Numbered from the stretch's first letter, positions 10,050 through 35,857 are shown. The stretch is DNA of 64,000 nucleotides from an uncultured Candidatus Saccharibacteria bacterium (GCA_964623335.1 CAZUST010000003.1:869-64868), one strand, 5' to 3'. Numbers and translations are program-made. Notes: generated by a model not told the origin, from the sequence alone.

Positions 10050-10051
10050 AG

Positions 10052-17194: not shown

Positions 17195-17204
17195 CTAAAA
17201 AACT

Positions 17205-20174: not shown

Positions 20175-20222
20175 TCTCCTCCGTGACAGGGAGGCGTGAT
20201 AACCAGGTTACACTACTAGCCC
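20145..20222 (-). tRNA. tRNA-Asp (anticodon GTC), CCA encoded
   Basis: Minus-strand sequence GGGCTAGTAGTGTAACCTGGTTATCACGCCTCCCTGTCACGGAGGAGATTACGGGTTCAAATCCCGTCTGGCCCGCCA folds as a cloverleaf. The anticodon loop CTGTCAC gives anticodon GTC. Confidence 0.8.
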
Positions 20223-20280
20223 AATCTTTGCGAAACATTACCAAGCTATCAGATAAATTAAAATTAATCAACCGGCTCGG

Positions 20281-20352
20281 TGCCGACGGCTGGATTCGAA
20301 CCAGCGACCTCGGCCTTATGAAGACCTCGCTCTGCCACTGAGCTACGCCGGC
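20281..20352 (-). tRNA. tRNA-Met (anticodon CAT; could be tRNA-Ile-lysidine)
   Basis: Minus-strand sequence GCCGGCGTAGCTCAGTGGCAGAGCGAGGTCTTCATAAGGCCGAGGTCGCTGGTTCGAATCCAGCCGTCGGCA has the T-loop TTCGAAT and the anticodon loop TTCATAA. Confidence 0.7.
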
Positions 20353-20439
20353 GATAAGATAAATAGTTTATCAGCCAATGAGTGATGAGTAAATGAGAAA
20401 ATGCAAATCAACGGATCGATGCAACAAACTACTGCGCGC

Positions 20440-20545
20440 CCAAGACGGCGCGATATTTCCGCGGAAAAGTTTATTAATCCTTTGCTTCGCTACGGACGGA
20501 CATTTATCCCGATGCAGAGCATCAGGGTATTCTGCCAGATTAATA
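20440..20545. repeat. Inverted-orientation diverged copy of the GC-hairpin repeat family
   Basis: CCGCGGAAAAGTTTATTAATCCT ... GGGTATTCTGCCAGATTAATAAA matches the reverse complement of the unit flank and core seen at 29.7, 31.0 and 43.8 kb, and the element at 61.8 kb. Confidence 0.5.
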
Positions 20546-20706
20546 AAAAACTTCCCCGCGTTTTATTTGCCATAGCTTACATGCTATCCTTGTCGCGGGG
20601 CCTGGAATTGCACCAGGGCCTCCAGCTTATGAGACTGGTGAGATACTACTTCTCTACCCCGCAATAACGACACGATATCTCGAACTTTTTTATTCTATCC
20701 CATTAT

Positions 20707-20738
20707 TTGACTTTCGTCAACGAAAAGTATTGTACAAT
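20707..20738 (+). promoter_or_regulatory. Candidate sigma70 promoter (TTGACT ... extended -10 TGTACAAT) with no ORF downstream
   Basis: TTGACT at 20707-20712 and TGTACAAT at 20731-20738. The spacing is suboptimal at about 20 bp, but the extended -10 is strong. The downstream sequence is the structured 20871-21003 element. Confidence 0.3.
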
Positions 20739-20870
20739 GCAAGTATTTGGTAACGGAATTTAGTAACCGCTCACCGGGGAGCAAAAAACGGATTTGTTGA
20801 GGTTTGATTTCATCTTTAAGAAGTCAATCTTCAACAAATCCGCGGCGGTAAAATGGGACACAAATCCGTA

Positions 20871-21003
20871 AAAAATATTTCCCGAATGGGTTTCGATATC
20901 GCGGGATGTTAACCCCCCCGAACCGGCCAAAGGAACACCCCCTTGAAATCATCGACATCCGCAACCCCGAAGCAAAATATCGGAGAATTACGGATTTTGA
21001 AGC
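20871..21003 (+). ncRNA. Copy a of the 'AT-box plus three-hairpin' structured element (candidate ncRNA or structured intergenic repeat)
   Basis: Homologous to the copies at 25171, 31205 and 35381, with the same AAAAATATTTCC..ATG box followed by three hairpins. It lies downstream of the candidate promoter and contains no ORF. Confidence 0.45.
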
Positions 21004-21241
21004 CAAACTTCCGCGAATACGCCAAAGATTGACTTAAAAACCCGGTCCCGGTGAGTGATTATTAAATTTGCCGTATAAAAACCGGCCGCTGAAAAAACGT
21101 GATCCTCTGAAAATACAAGTTGCCAAGGTGAAACCTCGCCGATCACATCAAGATTACCCCTTTAAAAATCCGGCACGTTTATTTTAACTGCCGGAATACC
21201 TCGGAGATCATCGATCCGCATATGAATCGTCCGGCAATAGT

Positions 21242-21760
21242 TTATTTATCGGTAAAGGCGTTGTTATCTTTCAGCCCCTGCTCAAAAGCAAGGATCGCGA
21301 TCTTGGCACTCTCGTAATCAAGGCTGTAGCTGGGATCGTTGACGATATCCTGGTAAAGCTGATCTGCCCGGATCATCGCCTTGATATCAGAAAACGAATG
21401 AGGGCGTTTCTCAAGTTTTTCGGCAAGGATCCGGCCTTCGAAATTGGCGCGCGTCAAAACATCGTTAACCAAAAGATCGGCTTCAATTACCGCCAGTTTG
21501 TATTCCGATTCTTTTTTCTTCAGCAGGCGTTTCTTGATCTTAACCCAATCCTTGTCAATCACCCGCGTCATATAGCTCCGGTAGGTAAGAAATTCTTTCA
21601 AGTCCCAGACCCAGAGGCGGCGCAGGTAGATGGTGGTGCACCAGACATAGACCATAAACGCAAAAACCCCCATGCAAAACAGGATAAAGAAAATTTTGGC
21701 CGCCAGCAGGACGCCAGTCATGGGCGGAAAGAGAATTTCGTTGAGTTGTTCAAAATCCAT
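21242..21760 (-). CDS. Hypothetical membrane protein
   Basis: Two N-terminal TM helices followed by a charged C-terminal domain. Confidence 0.5.
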   Translation of the reverse strand: MDFEQLNEILFPPMTGVLLAAKIFFILFCMGVFAFMVYVWCTTIYLRRLWVWDLKEFLTYRSYMTRVIDKDWVKIKKRLLKKKESEYKLAVIEADLLVNDVLTRANFEGRILAEKLEKRPHSFSDIKAMIRADQLYQDIVNDPSYSLDYESAKIAILAFEQGLKDNNAFTDK

Positions 21761-21801
21761 ATACGATATGGAATGAAAGCGGGCGGAACCGCCCGCGGAA
21801 A

Positions 21802-23220
21802 TTACTTTTGAGAAAGCTTTTCGCCAATCGCAAACAGCCGGGATTCGTCGAAATGCTTGCCGAGGATCTGCAAACCCACCGGCAAACCGTTAATATCGCC
21901 CGCAGGCAGAGCCAGCGAAGGCACCCCCGCAAGATTAATCGAAATCGTGAAGATATCAGAAAGGTACATTTGCAAAGGATCATCCATTTTTTCGCCGATC
22001 TTAAACGCGGGCGTGGGCGAGACCGGAGCAATAATCGCGTCAACATCCTCCAAAGCTTTGTCGAAATCGCGTTTGATCAAAGTGCGGACCTTCTGGGCGC
22101 GCACGTAATACGCGTCGTAATAACCCGCCGACAGCACATAAGTTCCCAGCATGACGCGGCGGCGCACTTCCGGGCCAAAGCCCCGGCCACGGCTTTCCAG
22201 ATAAATATGTTCGATATCTTTGGCATCCGGAGACGTGTAGCCGAAACGAATACCGTCGTATCTGGCAAGGTTGGCGCTTGCCTCGGAAGTGGCAATAATA
22301 TAATAGCAAGCCAGGGCATATTCGGTATGCGGCAGGGATATTTCAACCACTTCGTTGCCGAGTTTTTCGAATTCTGCCAATTTTTTGCGGATAATCGATT
22401 CCACCCGCGGATCCATGCCTTTGATGAAATATTCCTTCGGTATCCCGACGCGGTATTTTTGCCGGGGAGAAAAATCAAGCGAAGCGTCGGTTGAGGTGCT
22501 GTCCATTTCATCCCGGCCGCGAATTGCGTCAAATACGGTCTTGGCATCCTCAACGGATTTGGCCAAAGGACCGATTTGGTCCAGAGATGAAGCATACGCC
22601 GCACAGCCATAGCGCGAAACTGCGCCGTAAGTGGGTTTTAAACCCACCACGCCGCAGAATGACGCCGGCTGGCGAATGGAACCGCCGGTATCCGAACCCA
22701 GCGCGGCCACCGCCAAATTGGCGGCCACCGCCGCCGCCGAGCCGCCGGAAGATCCCCCGGGAACGCGCTCGGGATCGCGCGGATTACGCGTCACGCCAAA
22801 GGCCGAAGTCTCGGTGGAGCTGCCCATGGCGAATTCGTCCATGTTGGTCTTGCCCAAAATGACCGCGCCTTGTTCTTTAATTTTTTGGATGACCGTGGCA
22901 TCGTAAGGAGCGATATAGTTTTCCAAAATTTTAGACGCGGAAGTGCATTTCAATCCGTCAACCAAGATATTGTCCTTGATGGCCATCGGAATACCGCACA
23001 GCGCGGGGATATTCTCCCCTTTGGCAATCCGTTCGTCGGCCGCTCTGGCCCCGGCGAGCGCCAAATCCCGCGCAACCGTCAAATAGGCGAAAAATTTATC
23101 GTTTTCTTTTTCGATCTTATCCAAGTAAGCCCGGGCCAATTCGACCGCCGAAAATTTCTTTTGAGACAAGCCTTGGCGGGCTTCTTTAATTGTCAGGTCG
23201 TTCAATTCCATAATCAACAA
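21802..23220 (-). CDS. gatA: Glutamyl-tRNA(Gln) amidotransferase subunit A
   Basis: Amidase signature GGSSGGSAAAVA with Ser-cisSer-Lys context. The gene lies next to gatC. Confidence 0.9.
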   Translation of the reverse strand: MLIMELNDLTIKEARQGLSQKKFSAVELARAYLDKIEKENDKFFAYLTVARDLALAGARAADERIAKGENIPALCGIPMAIKDNILVDGLKCTSASKILENYIAPYDATVIQKIKEQGAVILGKTNMDEFAMGSSTETSAFGVTRNPRDPERVPGGSSGGSAAAVAANLAVAALGSDTGGSIRQPASFCGVVGLKPTYGAVSRYGCAAYASSLDQIGPLAKSVEDAKTVFDAIRGRDEMDSTSTDASLDFSPRQKYRVGIPKEYFIKGMDPRVESIIRKKLAEFEKLGNEVVEISLPHTEYALACYYIIATSEASANLARYDGIRFGYTSPDAKDIEHIYLESRGRGFGPEVRRRVMLGTYVLSAGYYDAYYVRAQKVRTLIKRDFDKALEDVDAIIAPVSPTPAFKIGEKMDDPLQMYLSDIFTISINLAGVPSLALPAGDINGLPVGLQILGKHFDESRLFAIGEKLSQK

Positions 23221-23221
23221 G

Positions 23222-23518
23222 TTAAAAAATGGATTTTACTTTGAGATAGCCGTCCTTGGTTTGCGGCATCTGGGAGCGCAGTTTTTCCAAACTTTCGGGA
23301 GTGCGCGGCGCCGCATTATCGGCCCGACCGACATTCGAAATATCGATTGAGTGCGCGAACGGTTTTATTCCTTCGATATCCGCTTCCTGAAGTTTTTCGA
23401 TATAACCCAAAATCGCCGAAAGATCCTTTTGGTATTTTTCAATCTCGCTGTCCGACAATCCCAGCCGCGCCAGCTTGGCAATATGTTGCGTTTCCTCTTT
23501 TGATAACATTAAATGCAA
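23222..23518 (-). CDS. gatC: Asp/Glu-tRNA amidotransferase subunit C
   Basis: LSKEETQHIAKLARLGLSDSEIEKYQKDLSAILGYIEKLQE is a typical GatC sequence. Confidence 0.85.
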   Translation of the reverse strand: MHLMLSKEETQHIAKLARLGLSDSEIEKYQKDLSAILGYIEKLQEADIEGIKPFAHSIDISNVGRADNAAPRTPESLEKLRSQMPQTKDGYLKVKSIF

Positions 23519-23719
23519 TTTTTTGATTATTAAAAATTAATTTTTAATATTTTAATTTCCAAATCAAACCCATAATGATCAATTCTTGGCAAACCAATGC
23601 CGCTTTAACCATTTTGATCCATTTTGACATTTGATATTTGGATTTTGACATTTTCAGCATATCCCATTTTTCCCCTCTTGTTAACCTTGACGAAATAAAA
23701 AAGTATGTTAATTTAAGCG

Positions 23720-23881
23720 TATGGAAAAATGCCCCGGGTGCAACGGAACGGGATTTGTCACTTATCCCGTTGATCAAAGCCACGATGTAACTCACCCCTG
23801 TTCCTCTTGCAGGGGAAGCGGAAAAATTGGGAAACAGAGAAATCTTAACCCAGATAATGAGATCGTGAGGTACGTTTACTA
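23720..23881 (+). CDS. Small DnaJ-type zinc-finger protein (53 aa), below the ORF-track size cutoff
   Basis: MEKCPGCNGTGFVTYPVDQSHDVTHPCSSCRGSGKIG contains two CxxCxGxG motifs. A hairpin plus T-rich terminator follows it. Confidence 0.35.
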
Positions 23882-23885
23882 ATAT

Positions 23886-23916
23886 TTTTCCTTCCTTTTT
23901 TTTCAACGCCGCCCCG
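23886..23916 (+). terminator. Rho-independent terminator
   Basis: CGCCCCGCAttttGCGGGGCG followed by TTTGATAT. Confidence 0.5.
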
Positions 23917-24027
23917 CATTTTGCGGGGCGTTTGATATAAATTAAAATGCAGTTTGCCGAGGTCGCGCCCCTGCTCCGCCAAAGCTCCGCAAGGGAACGA
24001 CCTTAAATACAAATACGAATGCAAAAA

Positions 24028-25158
24028 CTATTTTGGGGGTTCCAACTCTTTTGTTTCAATTAACACTTCGCGAAGTTTGTCCAGATTTTCCAATACCATG
24101 CCCGCGCCGCGGACAACCGAAGTTTTCGGATCTTCCACGGTTTTGACAGGCATACGAGTCTCTTTGGCGATAAGTTCATCCAAGCCGCGCAACTGGCTGC
24201 CGCCGCCGCACAGATAAATCCCGTTGTGCATAATATCGGCAATCAGTTCCGGCGGAGTTTCTTCGATAGCCATTTTGATCTCGTTAACGATCTGCCGCAC
24301 CGATTTGTCGATGGCGCGGCGGATCTCGTCTTCGGAAATAACGACCTCTTCGGGCAGGCCCGTCACCAGATTACGGCCGCGCATCTTGAAGTCGCGTTTA
24401 ACCGGTTTTTCCTTTTCCTTTTCCTTGTCCTTGTCTTTGTCTTTTTTGCCGCCCGCAACAACGATTTTGGCGTTGTCCGACGAATAAGCCAAACCGATAC
24501 CGATTTTAATGTTTTCGGCCATGCGCTCGCCGATCAAAAGCTTGTATTCCTCCTGCACGAACTGCATGATATCTTCGCAAAGTTTGTCGCCGGCCACGCG
24601 CAGGCTTTTGCCGAACACAATGCCACCCAGCGAAATGACCGCGATCTCGGTCGTACCGCCGCCCAAGTCAACCACAAAACTGCCCTGCGCTTCCTGTACC
24701 GGCAGACGAATACCGATGGCCGAGGCCATCGGTTCTTCGATCAGATAAACTTCGCGCGCGCCGGCGGATTTGCCCGCGTCGATAACGGCTTTCTTTTCCA
24801 CTTCGGTAACCCCAACCGGTACGCCCACGATCACCCGCGGCCGCAGGTTAAAAAGCAAACGGCGCTTACGGGCCTTTTCGATGAAATAGCGGAACATTTG
24901 TTCTGTAACTTCAAAATCCGAAATGACGCCGTGGCGCATGGGGCGCACGGCGACAATATGGGACGGCGTACGCCCTACCATTTTTTTGGCTTCTTCGCCT
25001 ACAGCCAAAATCTGGCCGGTTTTTTGGTTGACTGCCACCACCGACGGCTCAAACATCACGATCCCCCGCCCCTGCACGTAAACCACCGAATTGGCAGTGC
25101 CAAGATCGATGGCCATATCTTCCGAAAAAAGTTTGGTGAATTTTTGCCAGAAGTTCAT
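24028..25158 (-). CDS. mreB: Rod-shape-determining actin homolog MreB (paralog 1, with a Lys/Asp/Glu-rich insertion)
   Basis: IDLGTANSVVYV, the D-x-G phosphate loops and VDLGGGTTEIAVIS are present. There is an unusual KKDKDKDKEKEKEK insertion. Confidence 0.85.
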   Translation of the reverse strand: MNFWQKFTKLFSEDMAIDLGTANSVVYVQGRGIVMFEPSVVAVNQKTGQILAVGEEAKKMVGRTPSHIVAVRPMRHGVISDFEVTEQMFRYFIEKARKRRLLFNLRPRVIVGVPVGVTEVEKKAVIDAGKSAGAREVYLIEEPMASAIGIRLPVQEAQGSFVVDLGGGTTEIAVISLGGIVFGKSLRVAGDKLCEDIMQFVQEEYKLLIGERMAENIKIGIGLAYSSDNAKIVVAGGKKDKDKDKEKEKEKPVKRDFKMRGRNLVTGLPEEVVISEDEIRRAIDKSVRQIVNEIKMAIEETPPELIADIMHNGIYLCGGGSQLRGLDELIAKETRMPVKTVEDPKTSVVRGAGMVLENLDKLREVLIETKELEPPK

Positions 25159-25170
25159 TTTTATTCCGTA

Positions 25171-25305
25171 AAAAATATATTTCCAAAATGTGTTTCAATA
25201 CCGCGGGGCGTTAACCCCGCGAATCAGCCGAAGGAGCGCCTCCTTGGAAATCCTCGAAATCCGCAATCTTGAGGCAAAACCTCAAGGAATTGCGGATTCT
25301 AAAAG
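25171..25305 (+). repeat. Copy b of the 'AT-box plus three-hairpin' structured element
   Basis: Box AAAAATATATTTCCAAAATGTGTTTC, then hairpins CCGCGGGGcgttaaCCCCGCG, AAGGAGcgcCTCCTT and ATCCGCAATcTTGAGGcaaaaCCTCAAggaATTGCGGAT. It starts 13 nt from the mreB start codon. Confidence 0.6.
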
Positions 25306-26600
25306 TTGTAATCGGCCACTTCGCCTATTTTTATCAGTAAGGCATCTTTGGAGCCGCGGCGCTTTATCTCAACACCGTCCTTTTCGAGCGTTTTGGCGCT
25401 GACCACAACCCGGAAAGGTATTCCCAATAAATCGGCATCGTTAAATTTCTCGCCCGCCGACATTTGCGCTCTATCGTCGTATAGTACTTCTATTTGTTTG
25501 TTTTGTAAATCAAAATAAATTTTATCGGCGGCGGCGGCGATCCGGACGCTGGTTTCGCTGTCTTTGGCCTGAAGCGCCAACAAATGCACCTTGAACGGCG
25601 CGATCTCGTCGGGCCAAACAATGCCATGGTCGTCGCGATGGATCTCGGCGACAGTTCCCATGATCCGGGTCAAGCCGATACCGTAGCAATTCATCAACAC
25701 CGGCAGGCTTTGTCCTTCCGGACCGACGGCGGTGAAATTGAACGCCGCGCTGTACTTAGTCCCCAACTTGAAGATGTTGCCGACTTCGATGGATTTTTTT
25801 TCGTTGAAACTGGCGCTGCCGCATTCCGGACACGCGGGATACTCGGATTTTATTTCGCGATTGATGGCCAAGCCGCATTTGTCACAGATATAAACGGTAT
25901 CTTCGCCGGCGTCGGTAATGGTTTGGAATTCGTGCGAAAATTTGGAAAAAGTCCCGCCGCTGGCCAGCGCGACGCAGGTCAACCGGGCCAGGCCGGTTTT
26001 TTTATAGATGGAAAAATACGCTTCCTTCACTTTTTCGTAGAATTCGTCGCAGTCTTTGGAATCGACATGAAACGAGTAAAGATCCTTCATCATAAATTCC
26101 CGGCCGCGCAGTAAACCGGATTTGGCGCGCAGTTCATCGCGGAATTTCGTTTGGATCTGGTAAATCGAAAACGGAAAATCTTTGTAAGAAAACGCGAATC
26201 TTCGCGCCAAGGGAGTGACAATTTCTTCATGGGTCGCACCCAAAGCATACTCGGCTTCCTGCCGACTTTTAACTTTATACAAGACATCTAATCCCGACCA
26301 GCGGCCGGTGGTTTCCCAATTGGCCTTGGGGGTGAGCGCGGGCATCAAAACGCGCTGGGCGCCCAGAGCGTCCATTTCCCGGGCGATGATGTTCTCAATA
26401 TTTTTAAGCACGCGAAAGCCCATCGGCAGCATCGTGTAAATGCCGGCGGAAAGTTTGTCGACAAAACCGCCGCGCAGCAAATACTGCGCGCCGGGACTGG
26501 ATTCTTGAGTCGAAATATCTTTTTGTGTCCGGGTAAAAAGTTTCGATTGCCGCATATTTTTATCAAAGTAATCGTCTGATATCCTGGAAGGTAACCACAA
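25299..26600 (-). CDS. proS: Prolyl-tRNA synthetase (short bacterial form)
   Basis: Class II aaRS motifs, with a ProRS-like N-terminus (SQLFTRTQKD...YLLRGGF) and an anticodon-binding C-terminus. Confidence 0.85.
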   Translation of the reverse strand: MWLPSRISDDYFDKNMRQSKLFTRTQKDISTQESSPGAQYLLRGGFVDKLSAGIYTMLPMGFRVLKNIENIIAREMDALGAQRVLMPALTPKANWETTGRWSGLDVLYKVKSRQEAEYALGATHEEIVTPLARRFAFSYKDFPFSIYQIQTKFRDELRAKSGLLRGREFMMKDLYSFHVDSKDCDEFYEKVKEAYFSIYKKTGLARLTCVALASGGTFSKFSHEFQTITDAGEDTVYICDKCGLAINREIKSEYPACPECGSASFNEKKSIEVGNIFKLGTKYSAAFNFTAVGPEGQSLPVLMNCYGIGLTRIMGTVAEIHRDDHGIVWPDEIAPFKVHLLALQAKDSETSVRIAAAADKIYFDLQNKQIEVLYDDRAQMSAGEKFNDADLLGIPFRVVVSAKTLEKDGVEIKRRGSKDALLIKIGEVADYNF

Positions 26601-27684
26601 CCGCGAATATCATCAATAGCGCGAAGAAAAACATGGTCAGCGTTTGCTCGATCTTTTGCGGCGCGGGCCGGCGCATCACGGCTTCAATGGCCAAAAACAA
26701 CAGACGGCCGCCATCCAGAGCCGGAATTGGCAGGGCATTGAAAACCGCCAGGTAAACCGAAATCATGGCTACGAACTGCAGATAGTAGCTAAGCCCCATT
26801 TGCGCCTGCTCGTTCATCAGATTCATAATACCCACCGGACCGACAAGCTGGGCCCCCGGCGGCAATCCCTGTTTGTGCACCCAGCGATTGATCATCTCTC
26901 CCCAACCCTGAAAGACGCCGACAGTCATATTCCAGGTTGCTTGGAAGGCATTACCGACGGCTTGCCAGCCGGTATAAGATTTTTGCGCGGTGCGCATCAG
27001 AGCAATACCGATCACGCCCTCTCCGGCCGGCGGATTTTCGCGAGGGGTGAGCGCAACTTGCATTGATTGGCTACCCCGCTGAATGTCAACTAAAATTTCC
27101 TGGCCCTTATGCCCGTTAGCAAAATCCTGGAGTTGGGAAACCTTATCGACTGGAATGGATTGCGCCTCATCCGTTCCCAGCGTTATTTTTTTGATAATAT
27201 CGGAAGTCCGCAGTCCGGCCGCCGAAGCGGGCGAATTATCAGCCACGGCGACAATCTGAACTTGGGCATTATCGACGTTTTCACTGTCGTCAACCGCTTC
27301 CACCGCGCCGGAAAGATAAACATAAATAAGAAGAATAACGGCGATCATCCAGAAGGAAATCACCCCGGCGGCAATGATCAGCATTCTTTGCCATATCGGT
27401 TTGGAACCAAAGCTTCGGGGATCTTTGCCGGCATCGGATTTGGCGACGCCCTTATCGTCCTCGCGATCTTCGCCGTAAAGCCGCACAAACGCGCCAGCCG
27501 GGATCCAGTTAATGGAATAGATGGTTTCGCCGATCTTTTTGCCCCAAATGCGCGGCGGTAAAAACATCCCGAATTCCTCCACTTTGACGCCGAATTTTTT
27601 GGCAAGTAAAAAATGCCCAAGTTCGTGAATCACAATAAGCCCGATCAAACTGAAAAAAACTAAAAGAATTGTTGATAACATCAA
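26563..27684 (-). CDS. rseP: RseP-type site-2 protease (M50 zinc metalloprotease with PDZ domain)
   Basis: HELGHF zinc motif, multiple TM helices, an internal PDZ-like segment, and the LDGG motif. Confidence 0.8.
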   Translation of the reverse strand: MMLSTILLVFFSLIGLIVIHELGHFLLAKKFGVKVEEFGMFLPPRIWGKKIGETIYSINWIPAGAFVRLYGEDREDDKGVAKSDAGKDPRSFGSKPIWQRMLIIAAGVISFWMIAVILLIYVYLSGAVEAVDDSENVDNAQVQIVAVADNSPASAAGLRTSDIIKKITLGTDEAQSIPVDKVSQLQDFANGHKGQEILVDIQRGSQSMQVALTPRENPPAGEGVIGIALMRTAQKSYTGWQAVGNAFQATWNMTVGVFQGWGEMINRWVHKQGLPPGAQLVGPVGIMNLMNEQAQMGLSYYLQFVAMISVYLAVFNALPIPALDGGRLLFLAIEAVMRRPAPQKIEQTLTMFFFALLMIFAVVVTFQDIRRLL

Positions 27685-27700
27685 AATTCCGATTTATGAT

Positions 27701-27730
27701 TTATGATTTATGATTTATGAATAAAATGCG
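27701..27730. repeat. Heptamer tandem repeat (GATTTAT)x4, immediately upstream of the rseP start
   Basis: gatttatgatttatgatttatgatttatga. A related block lies upstream of rpsG at 62415-62455. Confidence 0.6.
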
Positions 27731-27780
27731 ATTCCGCTTTTATTCTTAAAAACCCTAAATCGCGGTTCGTAAATCGCAGA

Positions 27781-28338
27781 TTATTCGGAGATTTCTTTTT
27801 TCTTGCGGTCGCCGACTTCTTCAATCTTCTGACTGTAGCTATCGACGGTCTTTTGCAATTCGTCCTTGGCCTTGAATTTGTCATCTTCGCGAATTTCGCC
27901 TTCACGCTCAAGTTTCTGAATCTGCGACCAAGCGTCGTCACGGGCGCGGCGGATGGCTTGTCGAGTATCTTCCTGAACCTTGGAAATCACCCTAACAAGG
28001 CTCTGGCGATATTCGCTGGTCAAGTCGGGCATCGTGATGCGGATGACTGCCCCCTCCGGAACAGGCTGCAAGCCCAATTGCGATGCCTTGATCGCTTTCT
28101 GAATCGGCTCGAAATAGGATTTGTCCCAAGGCTGGATAACGATCTGGCGCGGTTCGGGAATCGAGATCATTGCCAGTTGTTTCAACGGGAATTTTTGGTC
28201 GAAACAGTCGACAACCATATCCTCCACAATCGCGGAACTGGCCCGGCCGGTGTGCACTTTGGAAAGTTCTTTTTCCAAATAAGCCATAGCTTTATCAAAT
28301 TCAGGGATAACTCTTTTTATCACATCCTTATAATCCAT
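27781..28338 (-). CDS. frr: Ribosome recycling factor
   Basis: Full-length match to RRF, including ...HTGRASSAIVEDMVVDCFDQK... and ...RNIRRDA-like segments. Confidence 0.9.
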   Translation of the reverse strand: MDYKDVIKRVIPEFDKAMAYLEKELSKVHTGRASSAIVEDMVVDCFDQKFPLKQLAMISIPEPRQIVIQPWDKSYFEPIQKAIKASQLGLQPVPEGAVIRITMPDLTSEYRQSLVRVISKVQEDTRQAIRRARDDAWSQIQKLEREGEIREDDKFKAKDELQKTVDSYSQKIEEVGDRKKKEISE

Positions 28339-28463
28339 AGATTTGAGTTAAAAATCAAAAGTCGCGTAAACGATTAAACCTAATATTCAAAGTATAACAT
28401 AATTTGAGCTCTTGTTAATCTTGACAAAAACATATAATTTGGGCCTGGCCAGCTCTTGTTTTT

Positions 28464-29405
28464 TTACAAATCCAACATAAAATACTCGATCGCGAGGCGC
28501 GAGCTGGCATTGGTGGTTTGCAAAACCATCCCTAGCTCATGAATTTTTTCCAATATGAGCGCGATCTTTTGAGGCGATGCCGAGGAAGCGTTTTTTAGTT
28601 TGGAAAACACAAATTGAGTGCTTTCGGGCGGCGCGGGTTCTTTTTTGCCGTTCAGGGCGACGAGCATTTTGTCGCGGAAATGCGATTGCCATATTTCCAG
28701 CAATTCGTCCAAATCCCGGCTGTCAGCAACTTTGGCCGCGTAAGCAAAACGCTCGGACATACCGGCGGAAATTACGCGGGAAAATTCTTCCGTTTTTTCT
28801 TGCCAAGCTTTGAGTTGGTCAGAGTCGGCCGCAAATTCAACCATCCGGCCGGGGCGGCCAAAGGACAGGCGTATGATTTCGGCACTTCCCTCGCTCCCCT
28901 TTAAATCGGGGAAACCGGCCATTTCTTTTGGGGAAACGAAATTGAATTGGAGTATTTGGCAGCGCGAGCGGATGGTTTCCAACAGACGATTGGAATTTTG
29001 CGCCACCAATACAATAACTGCGCTTCCGGGCGGTTCTTCAAGTGTTTTTAAAAGCGCATTTTGCGCTTCGGCGTTCATCAGATGAGCGTCGTCGATAAGA
29101 GCCGCCTTTACCGGTGCGACCGCGGGAGTTAGCGACAGCTTCCAGATCAGGTTGCGGATTTGAGCCACCGTAATCTCGGACGCCAATTTGCCGGTTTTTG
29201 GATCGGTAAGCGGCGCGACAAAAGCAAAATCCGGATGAGCGGCCGACGCGCTAAGGCGCGCGCCCAAAATTTCCGACAGCCACTCAAGAGCAACGGTTTT
29301 TTTGCCGATCTTAGAAGGGCCGCTTAGGATATAAGCGTGCGAAAGGCGGCCGTTCTGACGGGCCGCTTGCAGTATTTCCAATTGTTTTTGATGACCTATG
29401 ATCAT
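28464..29405 (-). CDS. holB: DNA polymerase III delta-prime subunit
   Basis: AAA+ clamp-loader N-terminus HAYILSGPSKIGKKT, about 310 aa in total. Confidence 0.75.
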   Translation of the reverse strand: MIIGHQKQLEILQAARQNGRLSHAYILSGPSKIGKKTVALEWLSEILGARLSASAAHPDFAFVAPLTDPKTGKLASEITVAQIRNLIWKLSLTPAVAPVKAALIDDAHLMNAEAQNALLKTLEEPPGSAVIVLVAQNSNRLLETIRSRCQILQFNFVSPKEMAGFPDLKGSEGSAEIIRLSFGRPGRMVEFAADSDQLKAWQEKTEEFSRVISAGMSERFAYAAKVADSRDLDELLEIWQSHFRDKMLVALNGKKEPAPPESTQFVFSKLKNASSASPQKIALILEKIHELGMVLQTTNASSRLAIEYFMLDL

Positions 29406-29711
29406 AAACTTTACGGAATTGCGCGTTTAAAATTCAAAATTAGGAGTCAAGCCCCTCGGAGCTTTCACTTCTCGGGGCTTGCGGTATCTGCATCGTCAAA
29501 GACGAAATTTTCTAGCCGCCGTACGCCAGTACGGTTTCGGCGCAATTTCATCTTTTCCTCGCACCTGCCGCAATCACGCAATTCCTGTCGCGTATTAACA
29601 ACCGCGTAGTCACCGGCCAATTGAATTTATATTTTTCAAATGTATTTCGCCTCCCGGAATAACGAACCCGCGAGCGGCGACTTTGGCGAAACGGAGAATT
29701 AACAAACTTTT

Positions 29712-29900
29712 CCGCGGAAATACCGTGCCACTTTGCGGTAGTTTATTTACCCGCCGGAATCCCTCGGGGATGAATGGCGGGGAATCAAACTATCACGCCG
29801 CCTTGGGCGCGCGGTAGTTTATTTACCCGCCGGAATCCCTCGGGGCCCTGCCCCGGGGATGAACGGCGGGGAATCAAACTATTGCAACGCTTTGCGATAG
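29712..29900. repeat. Tandem array of two full and one degenerate GC-rich hairpin repeat units (family 'GC-hairpin')
   Basis: The unit is ..GCGCGCGGTAGTTTATTTACCCGCCGGAATCCCTCGGGG(ccctgcccc)ATGAACGGCGGGGAATCAAACTAT... The stem CCCGCCG/CGGCGGG encloses ATCCC/GGGAT. The array abuts the stop codon of mreB paralog 2. Confidence 0.7.
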
Positions 29901-29901
29901 T

Positions 29902-30900
29902 TTATTTCTTGGCCATGATCGATTTTTTGTAGAATTCCAAGTTTTCCAAGACCGCGCCGGTACCTTTAGCCACGCAAAGCAGGGCATTGTCGGCGACGAC
30001 GCAAGGCACGCCGATGGAATTGGTAACCAGTTCGGCAAGATTGCGCATCAGGCTGGAACCGCCGGCCAAAACCATACCCTTATCCATAATGTCGGCAGAA
30101 AGTTCGGGGGGCGTGTCGCGCAAAACCACTTTGATCGTTTGCATAATTTCGGCCAAGGAGTCCTGCACGGCTTCACTTACCTCATTGGAATCGATCTTTA
30201 CATTGCGGGGAAGACCCGAAACAAGGTCGCGGCCCTTGATCTGCATTACTTTGGGTTCTTTTTCGGGGATGGCAGTGCCGATATTGATCTTGATATCCTC
30301 CGTGGTTTGGTCGCCAATCGCCAGATTGTACTTGCGTTTAACGTAATCGACAATCGCCGCGTCCATTTTGTCGCCGGCAATACGCAATGATTGGAAATTA
30401 ACGATCCCGCCCAGCGAGATCACCGCCACTTCAGAAGTACCGCCGCCGATATCCACAATCATATTGCCCGAGCAGGAATGAATCGGAACACCCGCGCCGA
30501 TCGCCGAAAGGATCGGCTCCTTGCAAAGGTAAACCGCTTTGGCGCCCGCGTTCATGCCCGCTTCAATGACGGCACGGCGTTCAGTGGAAGTGATACCGGC
30601 GGGAACACTGATAACCAGTTCAGGTTTGAAGAAACGGAATTTACCGGAAACCTTATCGATAAAATAACGGATCATCGCTTGAGTCACGACAAAATCGGCG
30701 ATCACGCCGTCTTTCATAGGCCGGTAAACCCGGATCGTGTCCGGAGTGCGCCCGATCATCTCGTTGGCTTCGCGGCCTACCGCCAAAATTTTGTTATCGT
30801 CCAGGTCAACGGCCACCACCGACGGTTCCTGCAGAACGACGCCTTTTTTGGGCACGAATACCAGCGAATTCCTTGTTCCCAAGTCGATTCCAATTTTCAT
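29902..30900 (-). CDS. mreB: Rod-shape-determining actin homolog MreB (paralog 2)
   Basis: MKIGIDLGTRNSLVFV, DIGGGTSEVAVISLGG, and an MreB-like sequence throughout. Confidence 0.85.
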   Translation of the reverse strand: MKIGIDLGTRNSLVFVPKKGVVLQEPSVVAVDLDDNKILAVGREANEMIGRTPDTIRVYRPMKDGVIADFVVTQAMIRYFIDKVSGKFRFFKPELVISVPAGITSTERRAVIEAGMNAGAKAVYLCKEPILSAIGAGVPIHSCSGNMIVDIGGGTSEVAVISLGGIVNFQSLRIAGDKMDAAIVDYVKRKYNLAIGDQTTEDIKINIGTAIPEKEPKVMQIKGRDLVSGLPRNVKIDSNEVSEAVQDSLAEIMQTIKVVLRDTPPELSADIMDKGMVLAGGSSLMRNLAELVTNSIGVPCVVADNALLCVAKGTGAVLENLEFYKKSIMAKK

Positions 30901-30984
30901 ATCAGTTCGAAAATTTATTAATCTGGCAGAATACCCCGACGCAGAACATCAAGAATAGATGCCAGCCCGTAGCATAACGGTAAC

Positions 30985-31135
30985 GAAGCGGAGGATTAAC
31001 AAACTTTTTCGCGAGAATACCGCGCCGCCTTGGGCGCGCGGTAGTTTATTTACCCGCCGGAATCCCTCGGGGATGAACGGCGGGGAATCAAACTATCACG
31101 CCGCCTTGGGCGCGCGGTAGTTTATTGAGAAAGTC
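30985..31135. repeat. GC-rich hairpin repeat unit plus partial unit, with the GAGGATTAACAAACTTTTTCGCG flank
   Basis: Same unit as at 29.7 kb, including the identical ACCCGCCGGAATCCCTCGGGGATGAACGGCGGGG core. Confidence 0.7.
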
Positions 31136-31204
31136 TTAACCGTGTTTTTGAGTTCTTTAACTCTAGCCCATTTTGCGAATTTAATCAATTCGAATTTCCC
31201 GCAG

Positions 31205-31320
31205 TAAAATAAATTTTATATTTTCCATTTGAGGCCGCGATCGGGGTATTAACCCCGATCTTGCGGCCAAAGGGGGCACCCCTTGCAAGATTACTTGCGA
31301 ATTACCTAAGGAATCCTTTT
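31205..31320 (+). repeat. Copy c of the 'AT-box plus three-hairpin' structured element
   Basis: Hairpins GCCGCGATCGGGGtattaaCCCCGATCttGCGGC and AAGGGGgcaCCCCTT show compensatory changes relative to copies b and d. Confidence 0.55.
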
Positions 31321-31572
31321 GGCGCGCCCCGGGGCAAAGCCCCGAGGTATTCTGGCGGGTAAATAAAGAAAAGGAGCGATTGAATCGCCCATGCCGTTAC
31401 GTGTCAGCGGGCGCACCCGACTCGCACCTCCTTAATGTCGCTTTGACAATTACTCCGGAAAGAGCGCGCGGTTCACCATCTTTGCGCTCCGCGCGAAAAC
31501 ATTCCGGGTGAATGCATATCGGACCGGCTAAATCCGTCATTGTTACGACCTCTTTTGCAATGTTTATATTAT

Positions 31573-31761
31573 AGACCTACTGCGTAAATATTTCCTACTG
31601 CAATTTCCATATTTTGGCTGCGCCGAATTCGTCAATCGTCGGCATATTTAAGCCAATATGCCTCCCTCGTTTTTGTGAAACGAGACTGCGAGCAGACATT
31701 CCTCATTCGGCTCGCGCGAAATCTGAAAATTTAGTCGCGTAAATATTTACGCAGTAGGTCT
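31573..31761. mobile_element. MITE-like element copy 1 (189 bp, 21-bp terminal inverted repeats AGACCTACTGCGTAAATATTT)
   Basis: The termini are exact reverse complements. Internal hairpins include CTCGTTTttgtgaaACGAG. The copy at 32996-33185 is nearly identical. Confidence 0.65.
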
Positions 31762-31767
31762 TATAAT

Positions 31768-32949
31768 TTAATTCTTCCGGTTTTCAGCCAGCACTGTCGC
31801 GACAACTACCGCCAGCACGACCGCAGAACCGGTAAAGAAAAGCCGGCGGTAGCCCAGAGGAGCGATCAGTAATCCCGCGGTTAAAGAACCGAGGGCCGTA
31901 CCCAAGGGCGAAAAAATCGTGTCGAACGCGGCCGCCTCTTCCGGTTCGTTCTTAGATTTGCCGGCGATCAAAGACGAACGGCCGGCGTTGCAAATAAACG
32001 CGCCAGCACCTTTAAAAAAATCCACGATAAATACCGCCAGGAAATTCAGACAGGCCGCCGGAAAGGCGAAAAAACCGGAAAACAGTCCCGCGGTCACCGC
32101 GCCCCGGATAATACTGGCACGGCCATTGTTCTTTTGATGCCGGCGGATGAAAACAAAATAGATAACCGAAAAAAATGCCGACGAGGCCGCGGTGTAGAAG
32201 ATCACCATATCGCGAGTCCAAGCCAGCGAGTCTTTAAGAAAAAGGACGAAAAATGCCGCGTAAAGGCCGCTCATCCAAAGCACCGCCGAAGATACGGCCA
32301 GATAAGGCAGTATTTTGATATCGGCGATACGCGCAAAAAGATGCCGCCACTGGGCGGTCCAACCAGTTAGGGAAATTTTGCGGCCGTTAAATTTAGCCGA
32401 AACACCCCAAAGGCGCGTTGCGGCCACGGCCAGCGCGGACAAAGTGATGGCCACGCTCAATGAGAAAACCGCCGTAAAACCGGAGCGCCAAATCAAAAAT
32501 CCACCGATAACCGGCGCGATCGCATCGGCCCAGATGGGCGCGTTATAAAACCAGGAAAATCCGTGCTCGATATTTCGCAAAGGATAGGCCATCAACAAGA
32601 TGCGGCAGGAAGTAAAAAATAGCGACGCCGAAACCCCCAGCGCAATCTGCCAGTAATAGAAATACGTTTCCCGGGCGCCAAAAATCATCGCCAGCGCGTA
32701 GGCGCCGTAGCCAAAAATTCCCAACATCATCATCAACGCCGGATTGGTTTTGCGCGAAAAAAATCCGGCCAGCGGGGCGCACAACGCGATCGGCAAATAA
32801 ACCAGCAGATAAGAATAACCAATTTGCGGCAACGAAAGCCCTTCAGCCGCCAAGAACAACGGGAAATAAGCCGAAAACAGTTTATAACCGAACATCAGTA
32901 AAAAATGAACCGCGGTAACATCGCGGACAACCAAGGAATTATTTTCCAT
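31768..32949 (-). CDS. MFS-family transporter
   Basis: About 12 predicted TM helices with MFS-like organisation. The gene is flanked on both sides by the same MITE. Confidence 0.7.
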   Translation of the reverse strand: MENNSLVVRDVTAVHFLLMFGYKLFSAYFPLFLAAEGLSLPQIGYSYLLVYLPIALCAPLAGFFSRKTNPALMMMLGIFGYGAYALAMIFGARETYFYYWQIALGVSASLFFTSCRILLMAYPLRNIEHGFSWFYNAPIWADAIAPVIGGFLIWRSGFTAVFSLSVAITLSALAVAATRLWGVSAKFNGRKISLTGWTAQWRHLFARIADIKILPYLAVSSAVLWMSGLYAAFFVLFLKDSLAWTRDMVIFYTAASSAFFSVIYFVFIRRHQKNNGRASIIRGAVTAGLFSGFFAFPAACLNFLAVFIVDFFKGAGAFICNAGRSSLIAGKSKNEPEEAAAFDTIFSPLGTALGSLTAGLLIAPLGYRRLFFTGSAVVLAVVVATVLAENRKN

Positions 32950-32995
32950 ACAAAATTATTCTAGCACAACAATTAAATTTAAGTATTTATATAAT

Positions 32996-33185
32996 AGACC
33001 TGCTGCGTAAATATTTCCTACTGCAATTTCCATATTTTGGCTGCGCCGAATTCGTCAATCGTCGGCATATTTAAGCCAATATGCCTCCCTCGTTTTTGTG
33101 AAACGAGACTGCGAGCAGACATTCCTCATTCGGCTCGCGCGAAATCTGAAAATTTAGTCGCGTAAATATTTACGCAGTAGGTCTA
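32996..33185. mobile_element. MITE-like element copy 2 (190 bp), direct orientation relative to copy 1
   Basis: About 99% identical to copy 1, with one TIR mismatch (AGACCTGCTG). Confidence 0.65.
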
Positions 33186-33238
33186 ATAAAAAAAGCATTT
33201 TCTCGTTCCTTTTGTATAAAAAGAAATAAGAAAATGCT

Positions 33239-33853
33239 TTATAACGATACGGGCCAGTCAGCCTGTATCTCCTGTATCTTTTGCAATTCTTTCATTGCCG
33301 CCATCGCATATTCCTGCTTGGGGCTTTGGGTCAGCCCCATAAGCGCCATGCAGTGCATGCGCTTGCCCTTGCCGCTCAACAGCCCCTTGCCGGAAATACC
33401 TTTTGCCTCATTAGCCGGCTCAAAGGTTTGGGCCAGTGTGTGCAATGTTTCCGTATCCACCCAGATCACTTCTCTGTCGTCCCCGCTATCGGCAAAAGTG
33501 AAACGGGGATGCGGCTCGTGATAAATCGTAACCATAGCTTGGTCACGCGTCTTCTCGTTTCCGAGAAAGACGGTGTAAAATGCCGGCATTTTTGAAAGGA
33601 AAATTCTTATTCCGGCACGATCCAACACCGCCTTTTCGACGGTCAACGCGGCGTGATTATAGCCGTACTTATCACCTTCGGTGGTAAGCATAGCACGACC
33701 CGGCAACTCAAAATTACCACGGTAGGAAACCCCTTCGTTGATTGAAGTGGTTGCGGTGCGGCGGTAGAGAAGTAATTTCCCAAAATCTTTTCCCTCTTCA
33801 TTGTTAATTATCGCAGCGTAAACGCCGATCGATGCGATTATTTTTTCTTCCAA
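33239..33853 (-). CDS. Hypothetical protein, possibly a Nudix-fold protein with a degenerate Nudix box
   Basis: GNFELPGRAML...EKAVLDRAGI resembles GX5EX7REUXEEXGU, but the catalytic Glu residues are not conserved. Confidence 0.35.
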   Translation of the reverse strand: MEEKIIASIGVYAAIINNEEGKDFGKLLLYRRTATTSINEGVSYRGNFELPGRAMLTTEGDKYGYNHAALTVEKAVLDRAGIRIFLSKMPAFYTVFLGNEKTRDQAMVTIYHEPHPRFTFADSGDDREVIWVDTETLHTLAQTFEPANEAKGISGKGLLSGKGKRMHCMALMGLTQSPKQEYAMAAMKELQKIQEIQADWPVSL

Positions 33854-34002
33854 GATTAAAACCTCCTGTAATTTCAGTTTATTTATTTTATGATTATTTT
33901 TAGTTTATGTCAATAGCTATCGCGCGGTTGAAAATTTTGGCCAATATTATAAGCTCTAATTAATGGCACCTGTCCGTTTTATCCGCGGCGGGAAAATTTC
34001 TC

Positions 34003-35328
34003 ATGAATTACATTGTTCGCAAAACGATCTTCATTTTTTTTGTTTTGCTTTTTATTATCGCGGCGCCCAGCCTGGCGCTTTACGCGCAAGGATACCGGCT
34101 GAATCTCCCCTACACCAACGGGGCTAAACTGATCGTAAAAACCGGCGGCGTATTTCTTAAAGTAAATCCGAAGCAAGCCGATGTTTACGTCAACGGCAAT
34201 CTTTCCGAACAGACCGATTTTTTCCTTGGTTCATCTTTGGTTGAGAATCTGTTGCCCCGCAAATACAATATTGAAGTAAAAAAATCCGGCTATAAGCCTT
34301 GGAATAAAAACCTTGAAGTGAAAGAAAAGGAAGTCACGGAAGCGCGCAATATTTTGCTTTTTCCGGAAAAACTGGCTTTTTCGCCCGTCGAGGAAAATAT
34401 CGTAGATATTTCAGCCGCCCCAGACCAGACTAAAATCGCGATTCAAGAGCGAACCGCCGACGGCTGGAATTTGCGGCTTTACGATCTGGCCAGCGGCATG
34501 ACCACCAGTTTGGCCGATGACGGCGACTTTTCAGTCAAAGACGCAACCATGGCCGGCTTGGAGTGGATCGATAATTCCCAAACATTAAAGGTGTCGATTT
34601 GGGCGAATAATAAAACCGCGGATTATGCCATCGCCACCGACAAAACTCCGGCCAAAATCGCGCGGCTGACGACAGATACGGCCGCGAATATCTCTACCAC
34701 GACGGTGGATTTGGCAACGGACAGCACGGACGGCAACACCTATAAATTGCAACAGGACGGCTATATCTATAAAAAACCCGCGCAAAAACAAGCTGAAAAG
34801 ATTTCTGAAGCAAGAATGGAGATTGATCCGGCGGCAACTTATAAGTTATGGGTTATTCGCGATTACTATTTCGTTAAAAAAGGATTTGAACTTTACGTAC
34901 TTGTTCCCGGGGCAACTAATTTTAAAAAAATATTCGACGGTTTAACATCGAATCCGGAACTTTCGCCCGACGGTAAAAAAGTAGTATACACGTCAAATTC
35001 CGAAGTCTGGGTATTTTTCTTGGACGATAAAATCGACCAACCCGCTGCCCGGGCCGGCGACAACGAGTTTATCATCCGGCTTTCGGAAAAAATCTCCGAT
35101 TGCCGCTGGCTAAACCCGAACCACTTGATATTCATTGCCGGACAAACAATCAGGGCCGCCGAGATCGACACCCGCGACCGGGTGAATATAATCGAACTGG
35201 CGAAAATATCCGATATTACCGGCAACGAACAAGCGTCGGAAGGCGCACGGCTTTTTTGGGACAACAACAGCAAGACAGCTTATATATTCGCCAACCAAGC
35301 ACTTTACCGATCCACCCCGATAGAATAA
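34003..35328 (+). CDS. Membrane-anchored protein with a PEGA-like domain and a TolB-like beta-propeller region
   Basis: N-terminal TM helix. VKVNPKQADVYVNGNL is PEGA-like. SPDGKKVVYTSN is a propeller blade motif. Confidence 0.45.
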   Translation: MNYIVRKTIFIFFVLLFIIAAPSLALYAQGYRLNLPYTNGAKLIVKTGGVFLKVNPKQADVYVNGNLSEQTDFFLGSSLVENLLPRKYNIEVKKSGYKPWNKNLEVKEKEVTEARNILLFPEKLAFSPVEENIVDISAAPDQTKIAIQERTADGWNLRLYDLASGMTTSLADDGDFSVKDATMAGLEWIDNSQTLKVSIWANNKTADYAIATDKTPAKIARLTTDTAANISTTTVDLATDSTDGNTYKLQQDGYIYKKPAQKQAEKISEARMEIDPAATYKLWVIRDYYFVKKGFELYVLVPGATNFKKIFDGLTSNPELSPDGKKVVYTSNSEVWVFFLDDKIDQPAARAGDNEFIIRLSEKISDCRWLNPNHLIFIAGQTIRAAEIDTRDRVNIIELAKISDITGNEQASEGARLFWDNNSKTAYIFANQALYRSTPIE

Positions 35329-35380
35329 TACCATAAGTGTTGTAATCGGTTTTTAAAAGCTGCGGCACAGGGCGGTTGTA

Positions 35381-35516
35381 AAAAATATATTTTCCAAATG
35401 TGTCTCGATACCGCGGGGCGTTAATGCCGCGGATCAGCCAAAGGAGCGCCTCTTTGGGAATCCTCGAAATCAGTAATCCTGAGGCAAGATCTCAAGGAAT
35501 TACCGATTTTAAAAAC
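35381..35516 (+). repeat. Copy d of the 'AT-box plus three-hairpin' structured element (in the 3' UTR of the plus-strand gene 34003-35328, before its terminator)
   Basis: About 85% identical to copy b. Stem changes are CCGCAAT to CAGTAAT and ATTGCGG to ATTACCG. Confidence 0.6.
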
Positions 35517-35518
35517 TA

Positions 35519-35552
35519 AAAACCGTCCCGAGGTTGCCGGGACGGTTTTTTT
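35519..35552. terminator. Bidirectional rho-independent terminator
   Basis: AAAAACCGTCCCGaggttgCCGGGACGGTTTTTTTAG, with A/T runs on both sides. It sits between convergent genes. Confidence 0.6.
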
Positions 35553-35589: not shown

Positions 35590-35778
35590 TTGTTTGGCGG
35601 ATTCGCAAATCCCTTATCAAATTTATATTTTGTTTTACCTCCTCTCCGGAAGACGGCCTTAACGGCGCGGATATCGCTAATATTGCATCAAGGATATATC
35701 CTTACGGAGTATCTAAGAAGTTATCATCCCATCGGTTCCCAAGAATTTGTCCCAGAGGCTATCTTCGGATAAACTACC
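35590..35778. repeat. Composite ~190-nt element (family 3), copy 1
   Basis: The segment ...GCGGATATCGCTAATATTGCATCAAGGAT...GTATCTAAGAAGTTATCATCCCATCGG...TATCttcgGATAAACTACC is about 75% identical to 49200-49350. A partial copy lies at 4850-4932. Confidence 0.55.
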
Positions 35779-35857
35779 CGGAGCAAAACCCCGGGTATTC
35801 TGGCGGGGAAATAAAACCCAAAAGGTATGTTTACCATCGAAAGGGATCCTTTAATCC

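Follow-up and report, generated by a model that had tools for sequence, protein, structure and literature searches.

Are the hairpin-rich elements that recur between the genes of an uncultured Candidatus Saccharibacteria bacterium conserved RNA genes, or are they mobile repeats? The question is raised by a 64-kb stretch of DNA (GCA_964623335.1 CAZUST010000003.1:869-64868, hereafter the window), part of an 82-kb contig, in which four copies of such an element (a to d, Table 1) were found on the plus strand, all inside 15 kb. A sequence-only reading of the window had proposed that selection acts on their secondary structure, either as an RNA or as a DNA hairpin handled by a transposase. Our analysis favoured the mobile side of this proposal, on the grounds of empty sites in relatives, the range of decay among the copies and modules held in common with other repeats, and went against a conserved plus-strand RNA gene. 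The elements are probably lineage-specific insertions of a small, non-coding, non-autonomous mobile repeat that spread recently in one species-level lineage of the Paceibacterota; the nearest named relatives of MreB1, which is encoded next to copy b, are metagenome-assembled genomes (MAGs) of Candidatus Paceibacterota / Parcubacteria. In behaviour they seem best likened to miniature inverted-repeat transposable elements (MITEs), and in their modular build to BOX and BIME repeats.

The boundaries of copy b were taken from an empty site in a relative (L014), and those of copies a and d from homology to b. The four sites given by the sequence-only reading were essentially retained, with boundaries shifted according to the empty site and with copy c turning out to be longer and a subtype. 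An nhmmer profile of a, b and d matched b, d, a and c with E values of 4e-49, 2e-48, 3e-42 and 6e-5, respectively, and copy b scored 170 bits in cmsearch. A repeat search returned a 137-nt family in which the ungapped identity to b was 87% for d and 69% for a; overall, copy a is ~78% identical to b. A degenerate pattern laid over hairpins 1 and 2 matched the four copies and no other site in the window, with 0 matches in 100 shuffles. Independent assemblies of five other samples have the same copies at the same loci, which excludes an assembly artefact.

Filled and empty sites in related genomes

Copy b adjoins the mreB start codon, as had been described, and lies between the stop codon of ProRS (25299-25301) and the start codon of MreB1 (25156-25158), both on the minus strand. 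The spacer between these two genes measures 140 nt in the window versus 4 nt in L014-L017 (MreB 90% identical), 6 nt in L012 (95%) and 7 nt in L018 (94%), and in the P0022 contig (94%) the genes overlap. When positions 25163-25298 are deleted, TTTTAG is joined to AAAAATG on the gene strand, which is exactly the L014 junction; copy b is therefore a clean insertion, with a target duplication of at most 2 nt. The block 34367..20147 is colinear with the 494-kb L014 contig, with longer spacers in the window, namely 867 versus 40 nt at the MFS-MreB2 junction, 496 versus 147 nt at MreB2-HolB and 573 versus 288 nt between ORF172 (an open reading frame, ORF) and the tRNA.

Further copies were sought with the pattern CGGGNNNTTAAN{12,13}GCCNAAGGNNNNNCYCYTTG among the genomes of ~186,000 species and in 241 million metagenome records. 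One real extra copy, of the c type, was obtained from both collections, on one and the same contig (L005/L006) of another Paceibacterota MAG; a second match, in a Pseudomonas MAG, was judged to be chance, and the same pattern found no match in viral contigs. The L006 copy (8782-8922) is 88.9% identical to c over 144 nt; elsewhere its 9-kb contig and the window are not similar at the nucleotide level. The copy stands after an upstream stop codon and before the start of a 131-aa ORF (ORF131), whose homologue in the relatives L019 and L020-22 begins 4-5 nt after the preceding gene, and the element is not detectable in the 6-20 kb of sequence from these relatives. Insertion polymorphism was thus seen at two independent loci (copy b and the L006 copy), and because the same sites are empty in relatives, conserved RNA genes are unlikely.

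A partial form was observed at another locus in L018, where only the AT-box and hairpin 1 module is present (E 1.5e-4 with the a/b/d profile). This module (3050-3125) is part of the 5′ leader of a P-type cation ATPase gene, with an extended -10 element, TGTTATAAT, on one side and the start codon on the other, and its hairpin 1-like palindrome is CGGGGTTAACCCCCG. The orthologous leader in L012 (~5040-5120) is without the hairpin segment of ~37 nt. An AT-rich stretch before the ATPase start codon, ATTTTTTCATGGATG, is native to both L018 and L012; its likeness to the family's 5′ end in reverse complement hints, as far as it goes, at the origin of that end. The L018 hairpin and the T9 run after hairpin 1 were considered as a small RNA (sRNA) terminator, and this was rejected because alignment with L012 identified the run as the extended -10 of the ATPase gene, TGTTATAAT, read backwards. 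Judged from these signals, the module would be transcribed, if at all, in the opposite sense, within the 5′ leader of the gene.

Structure of the element and erosion of its stems

A full element consists of a 5′ terminus, a palindromic AT-box, a conserved stretch, hairpin 1, hairpin 2 and a two-tier hairpin 3. The AT-box is AAAAAATATATTT, followed by the conserved (A/T)GTGTTTCGATA stretch; box and sequence just 3′ of it form the best-conserved part of the element, and similarity among the copies ends 8-10 nt upstream of the box. The AT-box string quoted by the sequence-only reading is a consensus across indels, with no ungapped match to any copy within 3 mismatches; its sequences for hairpins 1 and 2 of b and c were correct. 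Hairpin 1 is a GC hairpin of 7-8 bp with the loop nnTTAA, in which TTAA is invariant in 6/6 instances, and no further occurrence of the motif GGG-n-TTAA-n-CCC was found in the 120 kb examined. Hairpin 2 (AAGGAG/CTCCTT) is Shine-Dalgarno-like. The 5′ terminus has its reverse complement in TTACGGATTT, the outer 3′ strand of hairpin 3; the resulting terminal inverted repeat AAATCCGTAA...TTACGGATTT is perfect in copy a (10/10, matched by 1/5000 shuffles) and reaches 7/10 in copy b at fixed register. After hairpin 3, copies a and d have TTTT and copy b has TTCT, and the c type has no U tract. The minus-strand 5′ flanks of the copies are T-rich, ending TTTAG, TTTAA, TTCA and ATTTA, which is suggestive only, given AT-rich spacers.

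Copy c departs from this plan in several respects. Its hairpin 1 has an additional outer stem, GGCCGC...GCGGCC, its hairpin 2 is AAGGGG/CCCCTT and is followed by an additional small hairpin, GCAAG-ATTA-CTTGC, and its 3′ part, CCCCGGGGCAAAGCCCCGAGGTATTCTGGCGGGTAAAT, corresponds to the hairpin-B module of another repeat family (family 2) described below. Copy c is a subtype with a borrowed 3′ module, not a truncated copy.

The element is non-coding. Its one open plus-strand frame lacks a start codon and is not conserved in translation (12 of ~45 codons differ between b and d), so a coding sequence was rejected, and a profile of the open a/b/d frame had no match among 5.8 billion proteins. Against Rfam 15, none of a, b, c or d matched a family at the gathering score, or meaningfully at E up to 10; in the window, gathering scores were reached by three tRNAs alone. 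A template/variable repeat of a diversity-generating retroelement was rejected since adenines are not singled out where b and d differ and a reverse transcriptase is absent, an integron attC site since a cassette array is absent, and CRISPR since the spacing is not regular.

Substantial variation in fold stability was observed. On the plus strand the RNA fold z values were -5.3 for b (-51.7 kcal/mol), -4.3 for c, -4.4 for the L006 copy, -2.5 for d and -0.6 for a; the minus-strand values are similar, with copy a at -0.6 on both strands. Copy a, which had been counted as a structured copy, therefore folds no better than shuffles. Watson-Crick stem pairs number 30/32 in b, 20/21 in c, 26/32 in d and 20/32 in a. 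With its 3 G.U pairs, copy d reaches 29/32, more pairing than random substitution predicts (P = 5e-4), and copy a with G.U pairs reaches 22/32 (P = 0.14). Copies b and c are intact, d is eroding and a has decayed to shuffle level.

Whether pairing is kept while sequence varies, as had been claimed, depends on the copies compared. Between b and c, with stems anchored at their loops, 20/21 stem pairs are kept across 13 arm substitutions, against a Monte Carlo mean of 12.2 (P = 1e-5); in an alternative alignment the change in hairpin 1 is a symmetric GATC insertion in both arms, and structure is still preserved. Within a/b/d, 3 double changes were counted versus 2.0 expected, and 144/500 shuffles were as high, so covariation there is not above chance; across all five sequences the RNAalifold covariation term was approximately zero. 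The compensation described for hairpin 3 was borne out for one pair of copy d (C-G to U-A), and another pair had become an A.C mismatch. The non-Watson-Crick stem positions on the plus strand comprise 11 A.C and 5 G.U, mostly from copy a, and these counts do not identify the selected strand. Young copies hold their stems, partly via compensatory change, and older copies decay.

Related repeats and the surrounding genes

The element was found to share modules with other repeats of the window, which makes it one member of a modular mosaic set including family 2 and the type 3 repeat, as shown in Table 1. The hairpin A of family 2 has 13 bp, ACTACCGCGCGCC-CAAG-GGCGCGGTAGT, and its hairpin B is built in the same two tiers as hairpin 3 of a/b/d. 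From unit to unit, the outer stems of this hairpin B vary yet remain complementary (CCCGCC/GGCGGG, CTGGCA/TGCCAG and TGCCGGA/TCCGGCA). Family 2 modules occur at two non-orthologous sites in the relative L012. Several operon spacers of the window are filled by family 2 units, which are the probable reason why contigs of other assemblies break around MreB2.

The type 3 repeat occupies the 196-nt L18-S5 spacer of the spc operon (49164-49359), and its AT-rich end adjoins the S5 start codon (49163). Both further occurrences of the AT-box named by the sequence-only reading proved to be weaker than supposed, as the match at 49187-49221 (nhmmer E 0.001, cmsearch 17 bits) is the leader of this different element and the one at ~63853 is not significant (E 1.8). 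A segment common to the type 3 copies could be taken for a 40-aa minus-strand ORF (49275-49397), with the frame lost in the other copies. An L18 C-terminal pseudogene was considered for type 3 and rejected; L18 is intact, so the likeness to L18 is superficial. The long plus-strand ORF 49177-49761, antisense to the L18 gene, has no family match and was judged spurious, as was 50437-50958, antisense to the stretch where S8/S14 would stand by the standard order of the spc operon.

A 204-nt element with 31-bp terminal inverted repeats, TTTATATTATAGACCTACTGCGTAAATATTT, is present in two copies (31563-31766 and 32986-33189, 98.5% identical), which stand as direct repeats around the MFS gene in a composite-transposon-like arrangement. 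A diverged homologue of this MITE was found in L014 at 15366-15527.

Table 1. Coordinates of the repeat copies, their parts and neighbouring features in the window (-, minus strand; +, plus strand)
Feature	Position	Strand	Remarks
Copy a	20862-20997	+	136 nt; between ORF 21242-21760 (-) and tRNA cluster (-)
Copy b	25163-25298	+	136 nt; intact reference copy; ProRS-MreB1 spacer
Copy b, 5′ terminus	25163-25171	+	ATTCCGTAA
Copy b, palindromic AT-box	25170-25182	+	conserved stretch up to 25200
Copy b, hairpin 1	25202-25221	+	loop CGTTAA
Copy b, hairpin 2	25231-25245	+	AAGGAG/CTCCTT
Copy b, hairpin 3	25258-25298	+	long, two-tier; 3′ strand also complementary to 5′ terminus
Copy c	31194-31364	+	171 nt; separate subtype; MFS-MreB2 spacer
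Copy d	35373-35508	+	136 nt; 3′ of PEGA-domain gene, 10 nt before terminator
Family 2	29735-29907	-	units of ~76-103 nt bounded by AAATAAA, often tandem
Family 2, further units	30912-31127, 43727-43913, 21178-21240, 44945-45022	-	
Family 2, further units	20413-20547, 61728-61874, 35777-35816	+	
Type 3 repeat	49185-49356	+	only 5′ AT-box leader AATCAAAAATATATTTTCAATATGTGTTTCG in common with copies a to d
Type 3 relatives	35615-35816, 4806-4928, 29620-29683; weak 63845-63883		
tRNA cluster	20148-20663	-	
ORF near copy a	21242-21760	-	
MreB1	24028-25158	-	376 aa
MreB2	29902-30900	-	332 aa
MFS transporter gene	31768-32949		
PEGA-domain gene	34003-35328	+	
Bidirectional terminator	35518-35550	both	
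S5	48441-49163	-	
L18	49360-49749	-	

The window has a GC content of 47%, and its plus-strand GC skew is negative throughout, so it lies within one replichore. From 21 to 64 kb almost every gene is on the minus strand, comprising GatCA, MreB1, ProRS, M50 protease, RRF, HolB, MreB2 and the MFS transporter, followed by S9/L13/RpoA, the spc and S10 ribosomal operons, EF-Tu and EF-G. The start codons viewed here have no obvious Shine-Dalgarno sequence in front. The two MreB paralogues lie 5 kb apart, and the order of both is kept in L014. Copy d was confirmed to lie between the plus-strand PEGA-domain gene and the terminator.

Convergent with mreB1 is a plus-strand ORF of ~53 aa (23723-23884) with zinc-ribbon-like CxxC...CxxC motifs. 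A GC-rich hairpin 3′ of it, CGCCCCGCATTTTGCGGGGCG (23910-23930), is kept in L014 and is probably a bidirectional terminator used by both this ORF and mreB1. An island of ~15 kb (4800-20175) separates T2SSE (3499-4707) from the tRNA cluster and carries a ResIII helicase/restriction subunit, an N6/N4 DNA methylase, DUF6998, DUF2726, a Toprim primase/helicase and a 549-aa large serine recombinase; the ORF of the recombinase and a tRNA gene overlap at the 3′ end of the latter. In L014 and in the same-species contig L010, T2SSE comes directly after the tRNAs with no island between, so the island is a strain-variable integrative element.

Origin of the repeats and their place in the genome

The elements agree with the Correia/NEMIS MITEs of Neisseria, which are non-coding, multi-copy sequences of ~100-200 bp with inverted termini, intergenic, often inside operons and co-transcribed, with presence or absence differing between close relatives and hairpins foldable in mRNA. 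The MITE-like traits found here are a size of 136-171 nt, the non-coding sequence, several copies, and filled versus empty orthologous sites. They differ from Correia elements, which duplicate TA, in having no clear target-site duplication, in termini of only ~10 nt that are clear in a and b only, and in an interior of three separate hairpins instead of one long palindrome. Pneumococcal BOX and enterobacterial BIME/REP mosaics offer a second likeness, being modular sets of short hairpin-forming boxes that are recombined into mosaics, as in copy c with its family-1 5′ part and family-2 3′ module, that form tandem arrays (here in family 2), occupy spacers and 3′ operon ends, and keep stems while sequence drifts. 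Unlike these, the present elements have no sequence similarity to them and no GTAG-headed REP palindrome, and their host is a small-genome bacterium of the candidate phyla radiation (CPR). In the REP/REPIN comparison, no GTAG head was found in hairpins 1-3, and in hairpin A of family 2 CTAC...GTAG lies inside the stem, not at the head. With no clear target duplication and no partner transposase seen, the elements are taken to work like a MITE/REP-type repeat, and no named family is claimed.

If the elements are mobile, they would be moved in trans by a transposase or recombinase encoded elsewhere in the genome, recognising their termini and/or hairpins; the need of such an enzyme for termini or hairpins would impose the structural constraint seen as stems kept between subtypes and then eroding copy by copy. 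Once inserted, an element would simply be co-transcribed with the neighbouring genes. Three tight operon junctions carry an insertion (copy b, the L006 copy and the type 3 repeat in L18-S5), and in all three the AT-rich end stands directly before the downstream start codon, with hairpin 3 beside the upstream stop codon. At such junctions an insertion might survive only with the unstructured AT-rich end, not a stable hairpin, against the downstream start codon; the opposite orientation would place a 17-bp hairpin on the initiation region. From genes without an obvious Shine-Dalgarno sequence and from the polarity of the junction insertions, we infer that this orientation is selected against, which would explain the uniform orientation of the copies.

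Several observations weigh against a mobile repeat. No transposase was found in the 64-kb window, where the only recombinase is the large serine integrase of the separate 15-kb island. Target duplication at b is 0-2 nt at most (T or TT), and the flanks of copy a, GACAC and TGAAG, share nothing. The terminal inverted repeats fall to 4/10 in d, are not above shuffles in c and give a 7-mer at p ~0.025 in L006. All four copies have the same orientation, although with n=4 the two-sided p is 0.125; more generally, the five full or near-full copies and one partial module collected are few, which limits both covariation and orientation statistics. The a/b/d covariance model, a scan with which the sequence-only reading had suggested, recovered the copies but, with filters off, no additional full copy in the window; a 17.5-bit match in L014 was rejected as the native terminator region 3′ of mreB1 (window counterpart 23890-24010). 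The single extra copy in the wider search may mean that the family is very narrow or that the pattern was too strict, and selection on a function, instead of recent spread, could account for the 89% identity of c to the L006 copy.

In the rival explanation to which we give most attention, though we regard it as unlikely, elements of mobile origin are now functional as exapted cis-acting mRNA parts on the gene-sense (minus) strand. The three stable hairpins after the upstream stop could then serve as 3′ protection of the upstream cistron, a processing site or a partial terminator, and the long A/U-rich unstructured stretch before the next start would be a ribosome-loading platform. The common polarity of b, the L006 copy and type 3 relative to the operon is consistent with this, as are junctions of 4-7 nt in relatives for b and L006 and a typically very short L18-S5 junction, the start-codon contexts without Shine-Dalgarno sequences, the L018 module placed within a 5′ leader from TGTTATAAT to the ATPase start, and the excess of A.C over G.U on the plus strand (11 vs 5), since A.C there is a G.U wobble on the minus strand. 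That asymmetry comes mostly from copy a alone, however, and copy a is at shuffle-level stability; relatives do without the element at the same junctions, and the polarity is explicable by purifying selection against the other orientation, with no gain of function needed. Such a role also fits neither copy d, between convergent genes beyond a terminator, nor copy a, upstream of tRNA genes behind their own promoter. On the plus strand, each copy could instead be an independent sRNA gene, with TATATT as -10, a start near (A/T)GTGTTTCG and an RNA of ~105 nt that would fold into hairpins 1-3 and end at hairpin 3 plus a short U tract; we consider this very unlikely. The AT-box region is indeed best conserved and recurs before other repeat types, TTTT follows hairpin 3 in a and d, stems are kept between subtypes and copy d has three plus-strand G.U pairs, and in size (~105-136 nt), three stem-loops and compensatory changes between subtypes the elements recall the multi-copy structured sRNAs of Rfam. 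Yet they have no Rfam 15 match even at E up to 10, none of the relatives examined has them at orthologous sites, the structure of copy a has decayed, b ends in TTCT and the c type has no U tract. No plus-strand sigma-70-type promoter (at least 9/12 matches) was detected in or before any copy, and there is no conserved -35 region, similarity ending 8-10 nt upstream of the AT-box. Upstream of copy a, where the sequence-only reading had placed a candidate sigma-70 promoter, none was found on the plus strand; the only nearby site (20720-20692) belongs to the minus strand and faces a tRNA. Together with the homologous L018 module, which lies 3′ of a promoter on the opposite strand, these results did not uphold an independent plus-strand RNA gene.

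A different kind of mobility was also weighed, namely a single-strand transposon derivative of the IS200/IS605 PATE or REP/RAYT type, for which a Y1 (HUH) transposase would use the hairpins as DNA recognition sites and act on the lagging-strand template; this is improbable, only a little less so than the sRNA gene. As in those systems, there is no target-site duplication at b and a, dependence on hairpins is plausible, and the four copies lie in one orientation on one replichore. The stems covary and the TTAA loop of hairpin 1 is invariant (6/6), and each copy is preceded by a minus-strand T-rich flank ending TTTA(A/G) or TTCA. In contrast to IS200/IS605 ends, which carry similar hairpins, the end-proximal hairpins 1 and 3 are unrelated in sequence, and the inverted termini of a and b are normally lacking there. 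The GTAG head typical of REPs is missing, no Y1 transposase or TnpB was seen in the window or any locus examined, four copies give no significant orientation statistic, and the related family 2 occurs in both orientations. A more speculative possibility, which we rate as a long shot, is that this family and the related ones with its AT-box leader and its 3′ hairpin module form a mobile intercistronic cassette. The cassette would be moved by a structure-recognising enzyme (single-strand DNA or RNA-guided) of a kind not yet linked to such CPR repeats, and would itself have been co-opted to uncouple and re-tune the expression of neighbouring genes in Shine-Dalgarno-poor, genome-reduced Paceibacterota. 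If that were true, the hairpins would insulate the upstream cistron and the A/U-rich end would be a portable ribosome-loading site.

CPR/Patescibacteria genomes are small and gene-dense. In a full-text search of the literature we found no description of MITEs or hairpin repeats in them. In the lineage studied here, small structured repeats of at least four related families have widened several intergenic spacers 2- to 35-fold, among them the ProRS-MreB1 junction and a spacer of the spc ribosomal-protein operon. The case also carries a caution: by themselves, compensatory changes from one repeat copy to another are no proof of an RNA gene. In practice such repeats are a probable source of assembly breaks, with MreB2 found on contigs of ~1.2 kb in three other samples. 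As insertions of a mobile repeat, which we hold to be the likelier origin, the elements would mark recent mobile-DNA activity in a CPR genome and offer a natural experiment on how far tightly coupled genes tolerate a 136-nt hairpin-rich insertion.

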